Assembly: GCA_965214775.1 (NCBI GenBank) | Contig: OZ243974.1 | Location: forward strand, 1,824,001-1,888,000 | Source: Nitrosopumilus sp. | GTDB taxonomy: Archaea; Thermoproteota; Nitrososphaeria; Nitrososphaerales; Nitrosopumilaceae | Reading direction: 5' to 3' | DNA length: 64,000 nucleotides | In this document: in pieces, positions 46,514 to 55,720 of the stretch | Layout of the letters: each line of letters begins with the position of its first letter | Position numbering within the stretch: the stretch's first letter is position 1 | The notes under the pieces: model-generated | The model's database searches: none | What the model saw: the letters and a program-made list of their open reading frames with translations, nothing else | What the model was told of the DNA's origin: nothing | Position numbers and translations under genes: made by a program

Positions 46514-47335
46514 GTATGAGTTTACCCCTCAGGCGACGTTTCCAGTCAGGGTCTTGGCGACCATTTCACTCACGCTGCAACCTTGGGCGCGCCAGTTCAC
46601 TGCTCAGGCCTATGTGGCCTTACCGCACCCCGGCAGATGCAGGTCATATCTGCAGTTTTGATTTTATCTTGATTATGTCGTTTTCTATCCTCTCGAACCG
46701 AGAGTCAAGCATCTCGTGGATGTTGGATGAAAGATCTCGGATCTCCGTTATGGTCTGATCCTGCTTGTTGAGCATCTGATCCTGCTTGTCGAGCATCTGT
46801 CTCTGCCCTGCGGCAATGTCATTCAGGTACATGGCCTCGGTAGCAAAGCCCTCGACAATCTCGCTTTCCATGTTTCTGCCACTATCCTGAATGTCTTGAA
46901 CCTTCCGGTACCCTCTGAGTACTGCACGTCGATGTCATCTACCTGCACCGGCTCTTTGCTGTCCCTTATTGAGGCGACAAGCCCCTCAATGTCCTCCCTT
47001 TTGCCCTCGCACTCTATCATGACCGTGCCGTCATCAAGGTTCTCGACGTGTCCGGTGATTCTCCGGCGGCCTGCCTCGCTCCTTACCCGGTAGCGAAAAC
47101 CGACGCCTTGGACGATTCCGCTTACGTGTATCCGTGCAGCATGTCGCATGTTCTCATGTGTGGTACGTCGTTATTATATTCTACACGCAGGGCGGGGGCA
47201 AACTCTTGCCCGGCCGGCAGTGCCATAGTGCGTGCAGTTGAAAATCGAATATTTTTTTGGCAAAACAGGCACGATGTGACAAAATTATATTCCATTTTTT
47301 GATGTTGGTACTACGCCTGAGGGGTAAACTCTTTT
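46514..47335. mobile_element. Non-autonomous cargo transposon with MITE-C ends (822 bp)
   Basis: TIR core GAGTTTACCCCTCAGGCG at both ends; 8-bp flanking duplication GCACAGTC (46506-46513, 47336-47343). Confidence 0.82.
46644..47149 (-). pseudogene. Acylphosphatase with coiled-coil tail, split by a frameshift near 46872
   Basis: GIVQGVGFR and GHVENLDDGTV motifs; tail MLDKQDQMLNKQDQ...RFERIENDI lies in a second overlapping frame. Confidence 0.75.
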
Positions 47336-49554: not shown

Positions 49555-49645
49555 TAGCCCGAGGCAGATTCGAACTGCCGTCTCTGCCTATATCCACTTT
49601 GTAAGATCCAGAGGGCAGAATCCTTGACCGCTAGACTATCGGGCT
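49555..49645 (-). tRNA. tRNA-Gln(CTG) with 18-nt intron at 37/38
   Basis: AGCCCGA/TCGGGCT acceptor stem, CTGCC-CTCTGG[ATCTTACAAAGTGGATAT]A-GGCAG anticodon arm, GGCAGTTCGAATCTGCC T arm. Confidence 0.93.
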
Positions 49646-49697: not shown

Positions 49698-50030
49698 CTA
49701 TTTTGATCTTGCCTCATGGATTGCAGTTGCATAATCGCAGTCTGCCTTTAATCTCATGTATGGAATTAGCCTGAAATGAATCGAATAGATCTTCCCCTCT
49801 TTTCTGATGATGCCCTTTTGCATCAGTGAGACGAGGCCCCTTGACGGAATGCTTATCGGGATGTTTTTTTCATCGCAAACCTGATCACGCTTTTTTTGAA
49901 ACTGCCTTAAAGAAAACGCCACGTCGTTTAACTCCAAAATCAACGGCCAAACAATCTGGCTCCAAACAAACCTCCTGTTCTCTGTTGCAGACGCATACTT
50001 GCCTTTTCCGCTCAACATTAATAACATCAC
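49698..50030 (-). CDS. Conserved hypothetical protein, winged-helix-like
   Basis: SRGLVSLMQKGIIRKEGKIYSI wing-like motif. Confidence 0.7.
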   Translation of the reverse strand: MMLLMLSGKGKYASATENRRFVWSQIVWPLILELNDVAFSLRQFQKKRDQVCDEKNIPISIPSRGLVSLMQKGIIRKEGKIYSIHFRLIPYMRLKADCDYATAIHEARSK

Positions 50031-50053
50031 CAGGTCATGTTATAACTTGATAG

Positions 50054-50758
50054 TTGCCTCAAAACGAAATTAAAGAATCGCTGGATTTGCTTGAAAAGGA
50101 CTGGGATGTCGATCCGGTTTTAAAAAGCTTCATGCTTGGAAGGATAACTGATGCAAGTGATCACACAGTCAAGGTCAGGGATGTCGTCTTTCATGTCCCG
50201 TATCTGAGATCCGAAAAAAAATTCATCCTGTGGAAATGCCACTGGCCTGACTGCCACAACTGCTGTGACAGGCAGGGACGTCTGCCGCTGACCTCCGATG
50301 ACCTGATCACGATTGGCAGGGGGCTAAAGTATCAGAGACCTTCCGAGTTTGTAAAAAATGACACCCTGACTGTGACATATCAGGAGCCGGGACCCTCCGG
50401 ACAGGTGATTACGATGACTACGATCAACCTGAAAAGAAAGAAAGACGAGACAGAGGCCGATGACGGCACTCGTATTCCTTGCCGGTTTTTGGATGATGAG
50501 GGCGGCTGCAGCATGCATCCTGACAGGCCCGGAGTCTGCTATCTTTATCCGTTCTCGACATGGCTTGAAAATGAGCAGGGAACAGCCAGGGTGCATGCTG
50601 CCTACCAGTTTACAGGCGACTGTCCGGGATTCTACCTTGCCGAAGACCTGGATCCCATGAAAGAGGAATTCAAAGAGTACTCGAAAATAATTTTTGACTA
50701 TAACATGGCATCAAACAGAACCGGCAGGGAGGGTCTTGGCTCGGCATCTTTTGGCTAG
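50054..50758 (+). CDS. YkgJ-family cysteine cluster protein
   Basis: CHWPDCHNCC, CRFLD, CSMHPDRPGVCYLYPF, CPG. Confidence 0.85.
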   Translation: MPQNEIKESLDLLEKDWDVDPVLKSFMLGRITDASDHTVKVRDVVFHVPYLRSEKKFILWKCHWPDCHNCCDRQGRLPLTSDDLITIGRGLKYQRPSEFVKNDTLTVTYQEPGPSGQVITMTTINLKRKKDETEADDGTRIPCRFLDDEGGCSMHPDRPGVCYLYPFSTWLENEQGTARVHAAYQFTGDCPGFYLAEDLDPMKEEFKEYSKIIFDYNMASNRTGREGLGSASFG

Positions 50759-50771
50759 GCTTTTGCCACGT

Positions 50772-50894
50772 CAGTACTTCCTAGATGTGCTTTTGCAGAC
50801 CCGGCACGCCATAGCCGCTAACTTCGTTTACGCATAAGATCTTCTCCAAATTACGTAATTACCGTGCCTGTAAAAGTACACCTAGGAACTACTG
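50772..50894. mobile_element. MITE family E (123 bp), copy 1
   Basis: Imperfect TIR CAGTACTTCCTAGATGTGCTTTTGCAG / CTGTAAAAGTACACCTAGGAACTACTG; identical copy at 54524-54646. Confidence 0.88.
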
Positions 50895-50896
50895 AC

Positions 50897-51411
50897 GTAT
50901 GAGGGCGCGTAAGAGACTGGCTCAGAGTAGGCGGACAACGAAATGCCACATCATCGAGGGCGAGTGGGAGTTTTCCGTTCAGTTGGGCACACACACTTTG
51001 ATCAGCAGGGAGGTGATATAATGATCAACGTAGGAATAGATGTTAATAAAAAGACGCGTGTAGCGGCCATCAAGAACCCGGCTGCAGGGATTCTGGAACA
51101 GGCAGAGTTTTCCAACACAGCCGACGGAACAAGGATGGCAGTCGTGGCCAGAACGCTGGCAAAGGTGATCTGGCACGTGCTGGCTGATGAAACCGAATAC
51201 CGCACACAAAACAAAGATCTCACGGAGAGAAAGTATAAAATGATTGAGTGTCTAGTAAATACGTCTGACTGAGAAACGCACACTCGCAGCGGCCCGTGCA
51301 GGGAACCAGAATAATTTGATATGAGAGTTTACCCCTCAGGCGACATTGCTGGCCGGAGCCTTGATCACCGTGCCTACCACGTCGTATTTTCGGGAGGGGG
51401 TAAACTCCTAC
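50897..51411. mobile_element. MITE family C interrupted by the IS110 remnant
   Basis: Removing the insert restores GTATGAGTTTACCCCTCAGGCGAC, identical to the end at 46514; right end GGGGTAAACTCCTAC. Confidence 0.72.
50904..51324 (+). mobile_element. Internally deleted IS110-family element
   Basis: ORF 51021-51272 with SD GGAGGTGA: N-terminal VGIDVNKK...FSNTADG fused to C-terminal AVVARTLAKVIWHVL...Y; GAG repeated at both ends. Confidence 0.75.
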
Positions 51412-51595
51412 GTTCTCCTTGGGACACGTCGGGTGTTGGAAATCTCAGATTTTGAAGACTTAAAAACAGCAGGGTAGTATCAGTTTGTTGCATAACCCTT
51501 CCTAAAATTTGAAATCTGACTGAAAATCACCGGAATGATCAACTAATTCTGACCGAAAAAGTAATGGATCATGAGGATGCCTCGTATGGTATACA

Positions 51596-53146
51596 TTGGC
51601 ACACACGGACAATGCAAAGTACGTAGAGAGAGGGGCAGGCCTGGTCGTCAAGTACGACCCCGGCTGGGAGAAGGATCTCAAGGCTGCCAACTGCCACAAG
51701 GAGGAGGGCGCCCCGTTCCTGTACGCCGAAGGCATGATAATGGCCGCAGCCGCCCTCAGGACCGCATTCATGCTAAAATACAGGCAGCTGTCAGGCATGC
51801 TCGGGGAGATGCTAAAGGGTGCGGACTCGCCGTGTTACACCACGATATTCAGAAGGATACAGAAGCTTGACGTAGATATTGCAGAGAACATAATTACGGT
51901 GCGCGACAAGACCTGTAACCTGGTCATGATATCTGACGCCACGGGCCTCAAGCAGCACAACCGGGGCGAGTGGATATGCAAGAAATGGAAGGTAAGGCGA
52001 GGATTCGTCAAGATGCACCTGATGGTTGATGCAGACACCAAGCAGGTGCTGGCAGTATCTGTCACAAGTGATGCAATCGGCGACAGCACGGAACTGCCGG
52101 CACTGCTTGAGGAGGCGGCCAAGAACATCAAGAAAGAGAAGGAGGAAGAGGAGCAGAACCGCACCGACAGCGCGGATGCAGTCAAGAACATCAAGAAGGA
52201 AGAGGAGCAGAACCGCACCGACAGCGCGGATGCAGTCAAGAACATCAAGAAGGAAGAGGAGCAGAACCGCACCGACAGCGCGGATGCAGTCAAGAACATC
52301 AAGAAGGAAGAGGAGCAGAACCGCACCGACAGCGCGGATGCAGTCAAGAACATCAAGAAGGAAGAGGAGCAGAACCGCACCGACAGCGCGGATGCAGTCA
52401 AGAACATCAAGAAGGAAGAGGAGCAGAACCGCACCGACAGCGCGGATGCAGTCAAGAACATCAAGAAGGAAGAGGAGCAGAACCGCACCGACAGCGCGGA
52501 TGCAGTCAAGAACATCAAGAAGGAAGAGGAGCAGAACCGCACCGACAGCGCGGATGCAGTCAAGAACATCAAGAAGGAAGAGGAGCAGAACCGCACCGAC
52601 AGCGCGGATGCAGTCAAGAACATCAAGAAGGAAGAGGAGCAGAACCGCACCGACAGCGCGGATGCAGTCAAGATCCCCAACATGCTTGCAGACGGGACAT
52701 CGCCGCTGGCTGTACTCGGTACCGGCGCGAATCCAGATATACCGGGAAAGATCCTGCTTGCAGACGGCGGATACGGCTCGAGGAAAAACGTAGCCGAGTG
52801 TCACAAACGCGGCATAAAACCGCTCATACGGCTTTTGACAAGTTGCAATGCAAAGGGCAAGGGCACCGGCGACAAGTGGGGCATGCTTGTACGGTGGCAG
52901 CTTGGGGGCGGCCCCGAGGTGCCTGTGGGTGATCTCTCAAAGGAGGAAAGACAGGAGAACCTGCGGTACTGGAAGAGCACGGTCGGCTTTGGCAGCAGAT
53001 GGATCGTCGAGATCGTGATATCGGCCATAAAGCGTATGTTCGGCGAATGTGTAATGGCCCTCAAGTGGTCCAATATAGTGCAGGAAGTAAAGCTGAGGAT
53101 ATGGCTGTACAACAAGTGGATAGCAGAGGCGGTGGCTGCCGTGTAG
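51596..53146 (+). CDS. IS5-family DDE transposase with internal 18-aa repeat insertion
   Basis: SDATGLK..RGEW, KMHLMVD, LADGGYGS, RWIVEIVISAIKRMFGE. Confidence 0.9.
   Translation: MAHTDNAKYVERGAGLVVKYDPGWEKDLKAANCHKEEGAPFLYAEGMIMAAAALRTAFMLKYRQLSGMLGEMLKGADSPCYTTIFRRIQKLDVDIAENIITVRDKTCNLVMISDATGLKQHNRGEWICKKWKVRRGFVKMHLMVDADTKQVLAVSVTSDAIGDSTELPALLEEAAKNIKKEKEEEEQNRTDSADAVKNIKKEEEQNRTDSADAVKNIKKEEEQNRTDSADAVKNIKKEEEQNRTDSADAVKNIKKEEEQNRTDSADAVKNIKKEEEQNRTDSADAVKNIKKEEEQNRTDSADAVKNIKKEEEQNRTDSADAVKNIKKEEEQNRTDSADAVKNIKKEEEQNRTDSADAVKIPNMLADGTSPLAVLGTGANPDIPGKILLADGGYGSRKNVAECHKRGIKPLIRLLTSCNAKGKGTGDKWGMLVRWQLGGGPEVPVGDLSKEERQENLRYWKSTVGFGSRWIVEIVISAIKRMFGECVMALKWSNIVQEVKLRIWLYNKWIAEAVAAV
52121..52669 (+). 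repeat. 54-bp tandem repeat: 9 perfect copies plus 1 variant (KNIKKEEEQNRTDSADAV)
   Basis: Perfect units 52184-52669 (486 bp = 9 x 54). Confidence 0.95.
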
Positions 53147-54523: not shown

Positions 54524-54646
54524 CAGTACTTCCTAGATGTGCTTTTGCAGACCCGGCACGCCATAGCCGCTAACTTCGTTTACGCATAAGATCTTCTCCA
54601 AATTACGTAATTACCGTGCCTGTAAAAGTACACCTAGGAACTACTG
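54524..54646. mobile_element. MITE family E copy 2, interrupting an HTH fragment
   Basis: Identical to 50772-50894; preceding bases translate as HHKDGLSPDGIAENLDMSGSTVSRG. Confidence 0.88.
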
Positions 54647-54706
54647 ACGTAAACGTAGGGATCCAATAGGGTACAAACCACCAAGTCTTGGCTCGGTATA
54701 TTTTGG

Positions 54707-55720
54707 CTAGGCTTTTGCCACCCTCATCAGATCTGCAATTCTGATATCCATTCCGAACCTGTCTTCGTTTTTCTTCATGTAGCGGAAAATCGCCAAAAAG
54801 TCAGGAAGCGACTTGAAAAAGCTAAAGTCCTTTCTGATCTTTGACCTTACAAAGTTGAACACCTTGGCATATACCTTGTAATGCTTCTCTACTGCCTTTT
54901 CGTATGCCTTGAAATCGTGCATGTTCTCCAGGAAGATTTCCACGCACTGCATTGACGGGATTATTCCCTCGCCCAACAACGCATAAACCGTTCCTATGGA
55001 CTCCCCGACTCCGACAACCTTTCCTGAATAGTACGGCTTGCACCTGTCAGGAGTGGCCAGCCTGATTGGGCGGCCCTTTGTTTTTATGATCTTGCCTCCG
55101 TGTTTTTTCAAAAACTCGTCTGTTGCCCTGATGTGGTTTTTGTTGTAGTCCCCGGCGCCAACATGTGCCCATTTTTCCCCTAGCGGGAAATACCAAAAGT
55201 ATCCCGACATTCCCGGGAACGGCTCGATATAGAAATCATCGTACGGGACCCCGTCTTCGTACTCGACCTTGTATTCGTAGGTTGGCAAAAAAAAGTCCTC
55301 CTTTAATTTTGGCAAAAATACCCTGTGAAAACCGGTACAGTCTACGATCATGTCGTATTCCCTTTCAAGATCCTCTGTTGATGGAGACTTTCCGTAGATG
55401 ACTCTCGAGTCCTTGATGAAATCCTTGATTAGTCCGATTTTGTCATATGTGCAAAGGCCGTGCAGGCCGATGTCAAATTTCACGTCATTGTTCATTTTGA
55501 CATGCATGCTTTTTCCGTCATGAATCAGATAGTCATTAAAATCCCTGCCTGTCTTTTTGCAGTATTCGGCAAGGATTGGCTTGATTGTACCCCAGGCACA
55601 GATTGAGTCATGCCTCTCTTTGGGATTCAGCTCGTATCCCGTGACATCGTGCTCAGAATCTTTGAGCCTTGCCACCAGGTAGGAACCTGCAACGCCCATT
55701 CCCATTACCGCAATCTTCAA
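54707..55720 (-). CDS. FAD-dependent oxidoreductase (geranylgeranyl reductase-like)
   Basis: GMGVAGS, ICAWG, GYFWYFP, VGESIG...GEGI. Confidence 0.85.
   Translation of the reverse strand: MKIAVMGMGVAGSYLVARLKDSEHDVTGYELNPKERHDSICAWGTIKPILAEYCKKTGRDFNDYLIHDGKSMHVKMNNDVKFDIGLHGLCTYDKIGLIKDFIKDSRVIYGKSPSTEDLEREYDMIVDCTGFHRVFLPKLKEDFFLPTYEYKVEYEDGVPYDDFYIEPFPGMSGYFWYFPLGEKWAHVGAGDYNKNHIRATDEFLKKHGGKIIKTKGRPIRLATPDRCKPYYSGKVVGVGESIGTVYALLGEGIIPSMQCVEIFLENMHDFKAYEKAVEKHYKVYAKVFNFVRSKIRKDFSFFKSLPDFLAIFRYMKKNEDRFGMDIRIADLMRVAKA

Follow-up and report, generated by a model that had tools for sequence, protein, structure and literature searches.

The insertion sequences (IS) IS4321 and IS5075 target the terminal repeats of Tn21-family transposons. 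Among RNA-guided elements, IS621, of the IS110 group, carries a bridge RNA in its left end; within each loop, 8 to 9 nt of the 5′ strand pair with the bottom DNA strand and 4 to 7 nt of the 3′ strand with the top strand, and the pairing of the right donor guide with the right donor (RDG-RD) is discontiguous (PMC11208160, Durrant et al. 2024). The available text of PMC11187229 describes elements of the IS1111 group as having subterminal repeats, terminal extensions of 7 (or 6) and 3 nt, an RNA that is usually located downstream of the gene, and two guides in a fixed order, the one complementary to the top strand being 5′ of the one that matches the bottom strand. The same text gives a few IS1111-type exceptions with an upstream non-coding region, such as ISMtsp17, and an IS110-type element, ISEc21, whose target is a conserved segment within the transposase genes of the IS3 family. 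A set of 662 archaeal IS110 recombinases is reported in the accessible part of 10.1101/2024.06.21.599552. The present analysis concerns a 64,000-nt stretch of DNA from Nitrosopumilus sp. (contig OZ243974.1, positions 1,824,001 to 1,888,000), referred to here as the window. Positions 50763 to 51325 of the window are very probably a dead, immobile mosaic remnant of an IS110-family insertion sequence with an IS1111-like build, termed family A. As part of this reading, there is equally good reason to regard family A and its sister, family B, as IS1111-like bridge/seek-RNA elements aimed at the terminal-repeat tips of two MITEs (miniature inverted-repeat transposable elements) and their parents, namely, MITE-C/IS-C and MITE-X/IS-X.

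Among 40 relatives, uninterrupted open reading frames (ORFs) were present only at 33 to 39% identity, and those at 44 to 53% were fragmentary matches in a single genome (G002); usable loci came from a wider scan. An intact family-A member has a length of 1348 bp, a 365-aa DEDD recombinase and subterminal inverted repeats of 9 to 10 bp, with terminal extensions of 7 nt on the left (AG plus ACGTT, one copy of the core being counted) and 3 nt on the right (GGG). The left end of 197 to 200 nt holds the RNA, and the right non-coding end extends over ∼53 to 75 nt. The subterminal repeats are ATATCAAAT/ATTTGATAT in family A and ATATGAAATC/GATTTCATAT in family B, with a compensatory change, and perfect repeats of 9 to 11 bp were detected in 15 of 20 loci. 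Family B shares 55 to 60% protein identity with family A, its left ends align over their whole length with those of family A, and its recombinase scored 248.7 bits, against a cut-off of 140, with the NCBIfam model NF033542 (“IS110 family RNA-guided transposase”). Three uninterrupted family-B recombinase ORFs were present in the genome, one intact family-B copy lying at genome positions 2030286 to 2031620, and no uninterrupted family-A recombinase gene was found there. The sole full-length family-A copy in the genome (left end at ∼403758, right end at 415387) is broken by a MITE and a ∼10-kb transposon; its recombinase matched both Pfam DEDD_Tnp_IS110 (PF01548; 2e-24) and Transposase_20 (PF02371; 1.8e-24), the N- and C-terminal domains that together characterise the ∼300- to 460-aa proteins of the IS110 family.

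The target of family A was defined from the flanks of its copies. MITE-C is ∼85 bp long, has the terminal repeat GTANGAGTTTACCCC and is present as 70 short copies, and the same ends occur on ∼1.54-kb elements, the parent IS-C. The sequence AGTTTACCCC (with one mismatch or none) occurs 315 times in the genome, representing MITE-C ends, and the five bases preceding it were G in 215, T in 205, A in 236, a variable base, and G in 235 of these ends, giving a tip consensus of GTANG. Eight of the 11 family-A right ends in the genome were followed by AGTTTACCCC at the same stringency, in several MITE-C subtypes and in both orientations of the MITE, and one more by an indel variant. All nine full left ends began with ACGTTATATCAAATC and were preceded, beside unrelated DNA, by GTA[T/A/C]GAG, the fourth base of which varied like the variable base of the MITE tip; eight of the nine are independent, two of them sharing a duplicated flank. 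These flanks place the insertion site of family A at GTANG-AG-TTTACCCC (hyphens mark junctions), with AG as a shared core, and GTAAGAGTTTACCCC is the proposed target sequence. Empty sites exist (GTANGAGTTTACCCC and CAGTAGTTCCTAG), and the AG found at both junctions is the short common core of a site-specific insertion that, as in the IS110 family generally, lacks the customary duplication of the target. In another genome, the intact element of locus L105 lies between GTAAGAG and AGTTTACCCCTC. The donor ends of family B differ from these, and its target sites are others, including the MITE-X/IS-X tip CAGT-AG-TTCCTAG.

Families A and B share a two-loop RNA architecture upstream of the recombinase gene, at left-end positions 47 to 168/171. 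The predicted RNA of ∼120 nt consists of two stem-loops, each with an internal loop, closed by a common helix. The helices are as follows.

P0, family A GCCCAA/TTGGGC, family B GCCTGA/TCAGGC: closes both stem-loops
P1, family A GAGCC/GGCTC, family B GAGTC/GACTC: with P2, borders the first internal loop
P2, family A TGCC/GGCG, family B TACC/GGTG: with P1, borders the first internal loop
P3, family A RCGGA/TCCGT, family B GGCGGAA/TTCCGCC: with P4, borders the second internal loop
P4, family A GCC/GGC, family B CCG/CGG: with P3, borders the second internal loop

These helices could be parsed in six of seven family-A left ends, the exception being a diverged A2 copy, and in all 11 family-B left ends. 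In the set of 18 sequences, 99.4% of cells were able to pair versus 18 to 43% with slid partners, and 6 of the 18 pairs had changed on both sides. A covariance model built from this set gave 64 matches in 89 loci encoding related recombinases, nearly all of which ended ∼30 to 40 nt before the start codon; most of these loci were in genomes labelled Nitrosopumilaceae, Nitrosopumilus, Nitrosotenuis or Nitrosotalea. In the resulting 54 distinct rows, pairing was retained in 97.9% of cells versus 21 to 42% in slid controls, and 15 of the 18 pairs had changed on both sides. G-U pairs in P2 (judged from pair types) and P3 (judged from the parse) occurred on the recombinase-sense strand only. Two-sided changes with retained pairing and G-U pairs restricted to one strand are the signature of an RNA. 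Single-sequence folding of the RNA cores gave P0, P1, P2 and P4. By analogy with the published systems, this RNA would be transcribed and bound by the recombinase.

The loop strands of the RNA were compared with the flanks and ends of each element. In family A, the 3′ strand of the target loop reads GTA[A/T]GAG+AC, which equals the MITE-C tip followed by the core and the element's two opening bases, and the 5′ strand is complementary to the core and right flank (GTAAACT against AGTTTAC). In family B, five variable guide bases change together with the copy's left flank (classes CAGTAG, CTTATAG, AAACAG and TTACAG), such that 46 of 55 variable guide positions were identical to the copy's own left flank; shuffles gave 27.3 ± 5.8, and only 21 of 20,000 reached 46. 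The right-target guide of family B1, GGAACT, opposes AGTTCC of the MITE-X/IS-X repeat. Across 54 loci, the left-target 9-mer matched the left junction at nine of nine positions in 25 loci and at eight of nine in 17, whereas unrelated guide-junction pairings did so in 8 and 29 of 2,452 cases, respectively, and nearly every match lay 53 nt upstream of the RNA. Among the 18 loci with a recognisable right end, nine had at least 5 consecutive nt in common with their right-target guide (controls, 20 of 270) and five had at least 7 (controls, 0 of 270); the right-target signal is real but weaker. The 3′ strand of the donor loop contained the right-end terminus and core (ATGGGAG) in 17 of 20 loci, with a covarying case, ATGGCTG, in locus L087, and the 5′ strand covaried with left-end bases 2 to 5 (AACG/CGTT, GGTG/CACC and GGGT/ACCC; AGC/GCT in family B). 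These elements thus encode a structured RNA whose loop strands covary with target flanks and element ends, the property that defines bridge and seek RNAs.

An alternative explanation is that the left-end structure is a feature of the DNA or of the mRNA leader, such as recombinase sites or translational control, and that the flank-like segments are copies of the ends recognised by protein. Fold energies no better than those of shuffles would suit this explanation, as would the occasional use of internal guide-like DNA as a pseudo-recombination site (...AGAC-TGACTCG, at a family-B right end, genome position 2788312). We consider it very improbable, as the helices pair through the 15 two-sided changes with G-U on one strand only, and the variable segments track the copy-specific outside flank, as is published for bridge and seek RNAs in the available text of PMC11208160 and PMC11187229.

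The initial annotation of this locus, made from the window alone, had proposed a bridge-RNA lineage that uses MITE-C terminal repeats. Both proposals are upheld by the families as a whole: the left end encodes a structured RNA with loops matching target and donor, MITE-C repeats adjoin eight of the 11 family-A right ends and all nine full left ends, and the other copies lie mostly at MITE-C ends rather than in unrelated targets.

Families A and B share features with both described groups, insofar as these are covered by the text available to us. Like IS621, they encode their RNA upstream of the gene, within a long left end, with one target and one donor internal loop, a strand of 8 to 9 nt in top-strand sense and an antisense strand of 4 to 7 nt, inclusion of the core and a discontiguous RDG-RD match. 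The order of the strands within the loops is swapped relative to IS621, however, with the 3′ strand pairing with the bottom strand, and the subterminal repeats are of 9 to 11 bp versus 2 to 3 bp. The combination of left target and left donor guides (LTG/LDG) placed first and repeats of 2 to 3 bp, which marks IS621-like members of the IS110 group, was absent from both families. The core is AG here, whereas that of IS621 is CT, and, in an archaeal host, a sigma-70 promoter at the junction would not be expected. Like the IS1111-group elements with a seekRNA (ISEc11, ISPa11 and ISKpn4), these elements combine a DEDD recombinase, subterminal repeats (within the ∼7 to 17 bp of that group), 7- and 3-nt extensions and the same guide order. 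Unlike most of that group, their non-coding region and RNA are upstream rather than downstream of the gene, and unlike the examples, they have archaeal hosts and target MITE/IS tips with a 5-nt offset. Families A and B resemble IS4321 and IS5075 in inserting into the terminal repeat of another transposon. They resemble ISEc21 in being RNA-guided insertion sequences that live inside other transposable elements, but in their case the tips of terminal repeats are targeted instead of coding sequence and the guide order differs. Both the left-target guide and the donor guide carry two additional bases (AC in the former, with which the element begins), and these resemble the “handshake guides” of PMC13626964. 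No paper on this archaeal clade, its RNA or MITE-tip targeting was found in a search that did not extend to the supplements of PMC11208160 and PMC11187229, which may list members.

The copy in the window was then parsed against the architecture of its family. The features of the window copy and its target are listed by window coordinates.

50763-50771, plus strand: left boundary of the relic, TTGCCACGT, corresponding to family-A left-end positions 70 to 78; the first 7 nt, TTGCCAC, are also host DNA
50772-50894, no strand assigned: MITE-X, 123 bp, with terminal repeats CAGTA[C/G]TTCCTAG..., inside the left end of the relic
50899-51020, plus strand: left-end positions 79 to 200 of family A, comprising the 3′ two thirds of the bridge/seek-RNA gene and then the ribosome-binding site
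50904-50908, plus strand: 3′ strand of P2, from the parse against the family architecture
50909-50918, plus strand: left-target guide GTAAGAGACT, which equals the MITE-C tip GTAAG, then the core AG and the element's two opening bases, AC
50919-50923, plus strand: 3′ strand of P1, from the same parse
50931-50978, plus strand: whole donor loop, from the same parse
50962-50973, plus strand: left-donor guide region GAGTGGGAGTTT (family consensus GAATGGGAG+TT)
50983-50988, plus strand: 3′ strand of P0, from the same parse
51021-51272, plus strand: residual recombinase ORF of 83 aa, with N- and C-terminal blocks fused in frame
51273-51325, plus strand: right non-coding end, complete, ending in ...AATTTGATATGAG
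51314-51322, plus strand: right subterminal inverted repeat ATTTGATAT, followed by the 3-nt extension GAG (GGG in most copies)
51326-51327, plus strand: core dinucleotide AG, common to element and target and found at both junctions in families A and B
51326-51411, no strand assigned: MITE-C copy without its 5-nt left tip, adjoining the right end of the relic
51412-51420, no strand assigned: GTTCTCCTT, one copy of the 9-bp target duplication of MITE-C, to the right of the window MITE-C
46514-46537, plus strand: unoccupied MITE-C/IS-C terminal repeat GTATGAGTTTACCCCTCAGGCGAC, an empty target

The N-terminal block of the residual ORF comprises codons 1 to 36 (to ...SNTADG, 51128) and the C-terminal block the last ∼45 codons, from ...AVVARTLAKVIW, with the fusion point at 51129-51143. 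This is in agreement with the recombinase remnant of ∼36 first and ∼47 last codons recognised initially. Relative to the 365-aa ORF of L105, 855 bp are absent and the two retained blocks are 89.6% identical; identity to the sole full-length family-A copy of the genome is 85 to 86%. The stump gave only an N-terminal match to Pfam DEDD_Tnp_IS110 (PF01548), with an E value of 0.0022, weaker than the cut-off. Both non-coding ends had been described as retained, which holds for the right end but not for the left end, from which positions 1 to 69 of 200 are absent. The copy has no left terminus, which comprises the donor half-site and left subterminal repeat, no 5′ strands of P0, P1 and P2 and no right-target guide. 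It also lacks a TTAT-rich stretch at positions 16 to 21, a putative archaeal TATA box with a start near position 45. The left-target guide and donor loop are the only guide parts retained, and the left-donor guide no longer fits the copy's own right end (ATATGAGAG). The string CGTAAGAG at 50908-50915, singled out initially for its resemblance to GTAAGAG, does resemble the tip consensus of the 315 ends and overlaps the left-target guide. No second match spanning the deletion junction was found in the genome, the window copy being single in this form, and neither two functional ends nor several dispersed short copies, which would characterise a MITE-like derivative, were present. In its deleted gene, truncated end, nested MITE and single occurrence, this copy resembles ordinary internally deleted IS remnants. 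Compared with window positions 49800 to 52000, contigs from four runs of one study reproduced 50500-50799 and 50985-51291 without differences, these contigs not being independent of the assembly, and included neither an empty-site form nor a MITE-X-free form.

The two junctions of the relic differ in nature. On the right, the relic adjoins AGTTTACCCCTCAGGCGAC, the MITE-C terminal repeat, with a junction reading AG-TTTACCCCTCAGGCGAC, and this is a genuine insertion junction. On the left, the initial annotation had placed a precise insertion starting at 50897, where excision at a duplicated GAG would restore a MITE-C end. The restored string is indeed identical to the uninterrupted GTATGAGTTTACCCCTCAGGCGAC at 46514, but the GTATGAG on the left is internal to the element (positions 77 to 83). 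MITE-X is bordered by a 4-bp target duplication, ACGT, at 50768-50771 and 50895-50898; MITE-X terminal repeats gave 50 matches in the genome, and most of the paired copies of MITE-X or its ∼1.5-kb parent examined had 4-bp duplications (ACAT, ACGT, ATAT, ACTT, ATTT and GATT), with an imperfect duplication match in at least three pairs. Without MITE-X and one ACGT, the window reads ...GGCTTTTGCCACGT-ATGAGGGCGCGTAAGAG. To the right of MITE-X, homology to the full 200-nt left end starts at position 79 (ATGAGGGCG, 50899). In all three family-A left ends of another genome (L105, L111 and L080, of which only L105 is an intact element), TTGCCACGT-ATGAGGGCG occupies positions 70 to 87. The GT of GTATGAG is, therefore, left-end position 77-78 and half of the ACGT duplication of MITE-X, and ATGAG is position 79-83. 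As all three left ends read the same, GTATGAG in the window is an internal hairpin loop and not a MITE-C tip; the apparent precise insertion is a coincidence between this loop (ACGTATGAG) and the MITE tip. The start of the relic was moved left to 50763 because GTATGAG at 50897 is element-internal and 50772-50898 is a foreign insertion with its duplication.

Host DNA to the left of the relic was examined in relatives. The gene at 50054-50758 is intact, its length of 234 aa being that found in 12 relatives, and TAGGCTTTTGC(A/C)AC after its stop codon is native, close variants being present in five of five relatives; relatives carry TAGGCTTTTGCAAC behind the homologous stop codon. A second TTGCCAC copy in the window, at 54716-54722, runs on into native DNA. 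Since TTGCCAC is both host DNA and left-end positions 70 to 76, the left boundary is a 7-nt microhomology junction. A view of this TTGCCAC as purely element-derived was dropped, as relatives show native host DNA there. The sequence GTTCTCCTT followed by GTATG-AG-ACGTTATATC was located at genome position 1100699 on the minus strand, and both flanks are unique in the genome. Because the same 9-bp duplication is present beside unique flanks, the true left partner of the right junction lies 775 kb away in inverted orientation. A search for the ancestral empty site with the left flank of this partner matched 1 of 30 other genomes, over repeats only.

A different account of the left junction was also considered, in which it is a real MITE-C tip: a full-length element would have inserted normally and later lost positions 1 to 83 by deletion between two similar sequences, GTATGAG in the flank and (A/G)TATGAG inside the element, with the tip left in place. 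A direct repeat of 6 to 7 nt, TATGAG, is available for such an event, and the outcome would be identical from 50897 rightwards. The host TTGCCAC beside the tip would, however, have to equal left-end positions 70 to 76 by chance (about 6e-5); the same host sequence is uninterrupted at 54716-54729 (TTGCCAC-CCTCATC), and a tip with the matching duplication is found elsewhere, at 1100699. The 9-bp MITE-C duplication expected on the left is absent, although 38 of the 70 MITE-C copies have duplications of 0 to 2 bp (23 being perfect at 9 bp, 6 at 8 bp and 3 at 6 to 7 bp). A deletion between the two TATGAG copies was dropped after relatives showed native TTGCCAC and the left ends of the other genome showed TTGCCACGT, and it now appears very unlikely. 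The initial reading of a complete, non-autonomous miniature IS110 element, inserted precisely in the MITE-C repeat and mobilisable in trans by a full-length recombinase and RNA, is scarcely credible: a literal GTATGAG...GAGTTTACCCC whose joined flanks give a legitimate MITE-C end, the occurrence of GTATG as a real tip variant in 18 of 315 ends and the three family-B recombinase ORFs speak for it, but full left ends begin 76 nt further upstream at ACGTTATATC in all nine other copies, TTGCCACGT-ATGAG is internal in the three left ends of the other genome, removal of MITE-X leaves a sequence other than the expected duplication GTTCTCCTT beside GTATGAG, that duplication stands with tip and left end at 1100699, and the copy is MITE-interrupted, has no left terminus or right-target guide, and is the only one with this deletion, no uninterrupted family-A gene was found in its genome, and family B has different donor ends.

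The interpretation of a decayed family-A element thus implies the following history, the order of decay events being tentative. By the published IS621/IS1111 mechanism, the RNA would bridge the circular element and its target, and a family-A element would land 5 nt inside the terminal repeat of MITE-C or its ∼1.5-kb parent IS-C, at GTANG-AG-TTTACCCC; family B would have been reprogrammed to other sites, including the MITE-X/IS-X tip. An insertion of this kind, with the MITE-C at 51326-51411 as its target, probably gave rise to the window copy, which would then have lost 855 bp of its gene and left-end positions 1 to 69, been joined to host DNA at the microhomology TTGCCAC and been struck by MITE-X. 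In this state it could neither make a working guide RNA nor act as a donor.

Several observations weigh against this interpretation or limit it. Two of the 11 family-A right ends in the genome are not beside MITE-C. Twelve of the 54 loci match the left junction at seven or fewer of nine positions, and right-target matches are weaker and vary in register, with 9 of the 18 loci sharing 2 to 4 nt only. The 18-sequence set represents two main lineages only and, hence, few independent events, and the 54-row alignment was fitted to the model structure and leans towards it. Folding of the RNA and guide-target covariation had been put forward initially as checks: helices and guides did covary, while fold energies were no better than those of shuffles (z of −0.64 for family A and −1.10 for family B), and the case for the structure, therefore, rests on covariation. 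Rfam searches of the window and full-length loci detected no bridge-RNA family, the only matches being a tRNA and a chance long non-coding RNA match. Finally, given a 37-nt direct repeat around the locus and the partner 775 kb away, any order and mechanism of the rearrangements is tentative.

The 37-nt direct repeat (35 of 37 positions identical) is located at window positions 50733-50769 and 54686-54722 and consists of the last 26 nt of gene 50054-50758, including the stop codon, plus GCTTTTGCCAC. It brackets ∼3.95 kb of purely mobile DNA, comprising MITE-X, the IS relic, MITE-C, a transposase gene and a second MITE-X, and native DNA 3′ of the gene resumes only at 54708 (five of five relatives align, at 75 to 80% identity). 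Template switching at microhomologies is one option for the origin of this duplication. The second MITE-X (54524-54646) is near-identical to the copy at 50772-50894 and has the flanks ATGT and ACGT; the right-hand repeats of both copies contain CAGTAG-TTCC, a perfect unoccupied target for family B1. In the central part of the protein encoded by the transposase-like ORF at 51596-53146 (516 aa), an 18-aa unit (NIKKEEEQNRTDSADAVK) is repeated ∼10 times in tandem, and at the DNA level the repeat is perfect. On the minus strand at 54710-54781, directly downstream of and convergent with gene 50054-50758, a 23-codon ORF (MKK..RFGM.IKI.DL.KVAKA in relatives) was conserved in five of five relatives examined and may be a small protein gene. 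A tRNA gene on the minus strand at 49555-49645 (Rfam tRNA, 50.8 bits) has a 21-nt insertion in the anticodon region, which is probably an intron.

Further arrangements of these families were observed elsewhere. At genome positions 2746640 to 2751230 (loci L021, L020 and L053), a ∼1.5-kb IS-X copy carries a family-B element at each terminal repeat, in inverted arrangement, and an extra right-end fragment. At 2788312, a family-B right end is joined to internal left-target-guide DNA (...ATATGGGAG-ACTGACTCG), the left end having lost its first ∼105 nt; from its sequence, this junction looks as though guide-coding DNA had served as a pseudo-recombination site. Locus L005 (genome 1100376-1100699, minus strand) combines a family-A left end with an N-terminal coding region 90% identical to family B (residues 1 to 67, with one TAG), a chimera that suggests exchange of guide-RNA modules by recombination. 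The ∼10-kb insertion that splits the full-length family-A copy (genome 405131-415304, between L002 and L010) has inverted ends GAACTGGGAAGTTTACGGTAGAT and the duplication CTCACGCAA. A third MITE type of ∼90 bp (ends GTATGTGGTCAC.../...GTGACCACATAC) is present at genome 404430-404520, ∼1269440 and 90312; it lies inside two family-A copies and adjoins one family-A right end. Close recombinase relatives with the same upstream RNA were detected on contigs labelled Poribacteria and Dehalococcoidia (L077, L092, L108 and L090), which may be mis-binned archaeal contigs from sponge metagenomes or may reflect real transfer.

The kind of element described here is already known, and the window locus itself is a decayed fossil of little weight. 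Of wider consequence is the clade to which it belongs. On balance, we lean towards the view that genomes labelled Nitrosopumilaceae, Nitrosotenuis, Nitrosotalea and others harbour an archaeal clade of bridge recombinases in which ends and guide order of the IS1111 type occur together with an RNA that is upstream and internally promoted, and which has repeatedly been reprogrammed onto the repeat tips of MITEs and their parent insertion sequences. If this is true, the clade would consist of hyperparasites of other transposons and would provide compact archaeal enzymes with readable natural guide-target pairs. The family offers dozens of such pairs for an IS1111-like bridge/seek RNA located upstream of its gene in archaea, together with natural retargeting between two transposon families inside one genome, and the covariance model built here detects these RNAs for annotation where Rfam gave none. 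The family shows that an RNA-guided insertion sequence can become specialised for the terminal-repeat tips of other elements. Such targeting accounts for much of the nested-repeat structure of this genome, and the specialisation would spare host genes, making MITE and IS ends safe havens.

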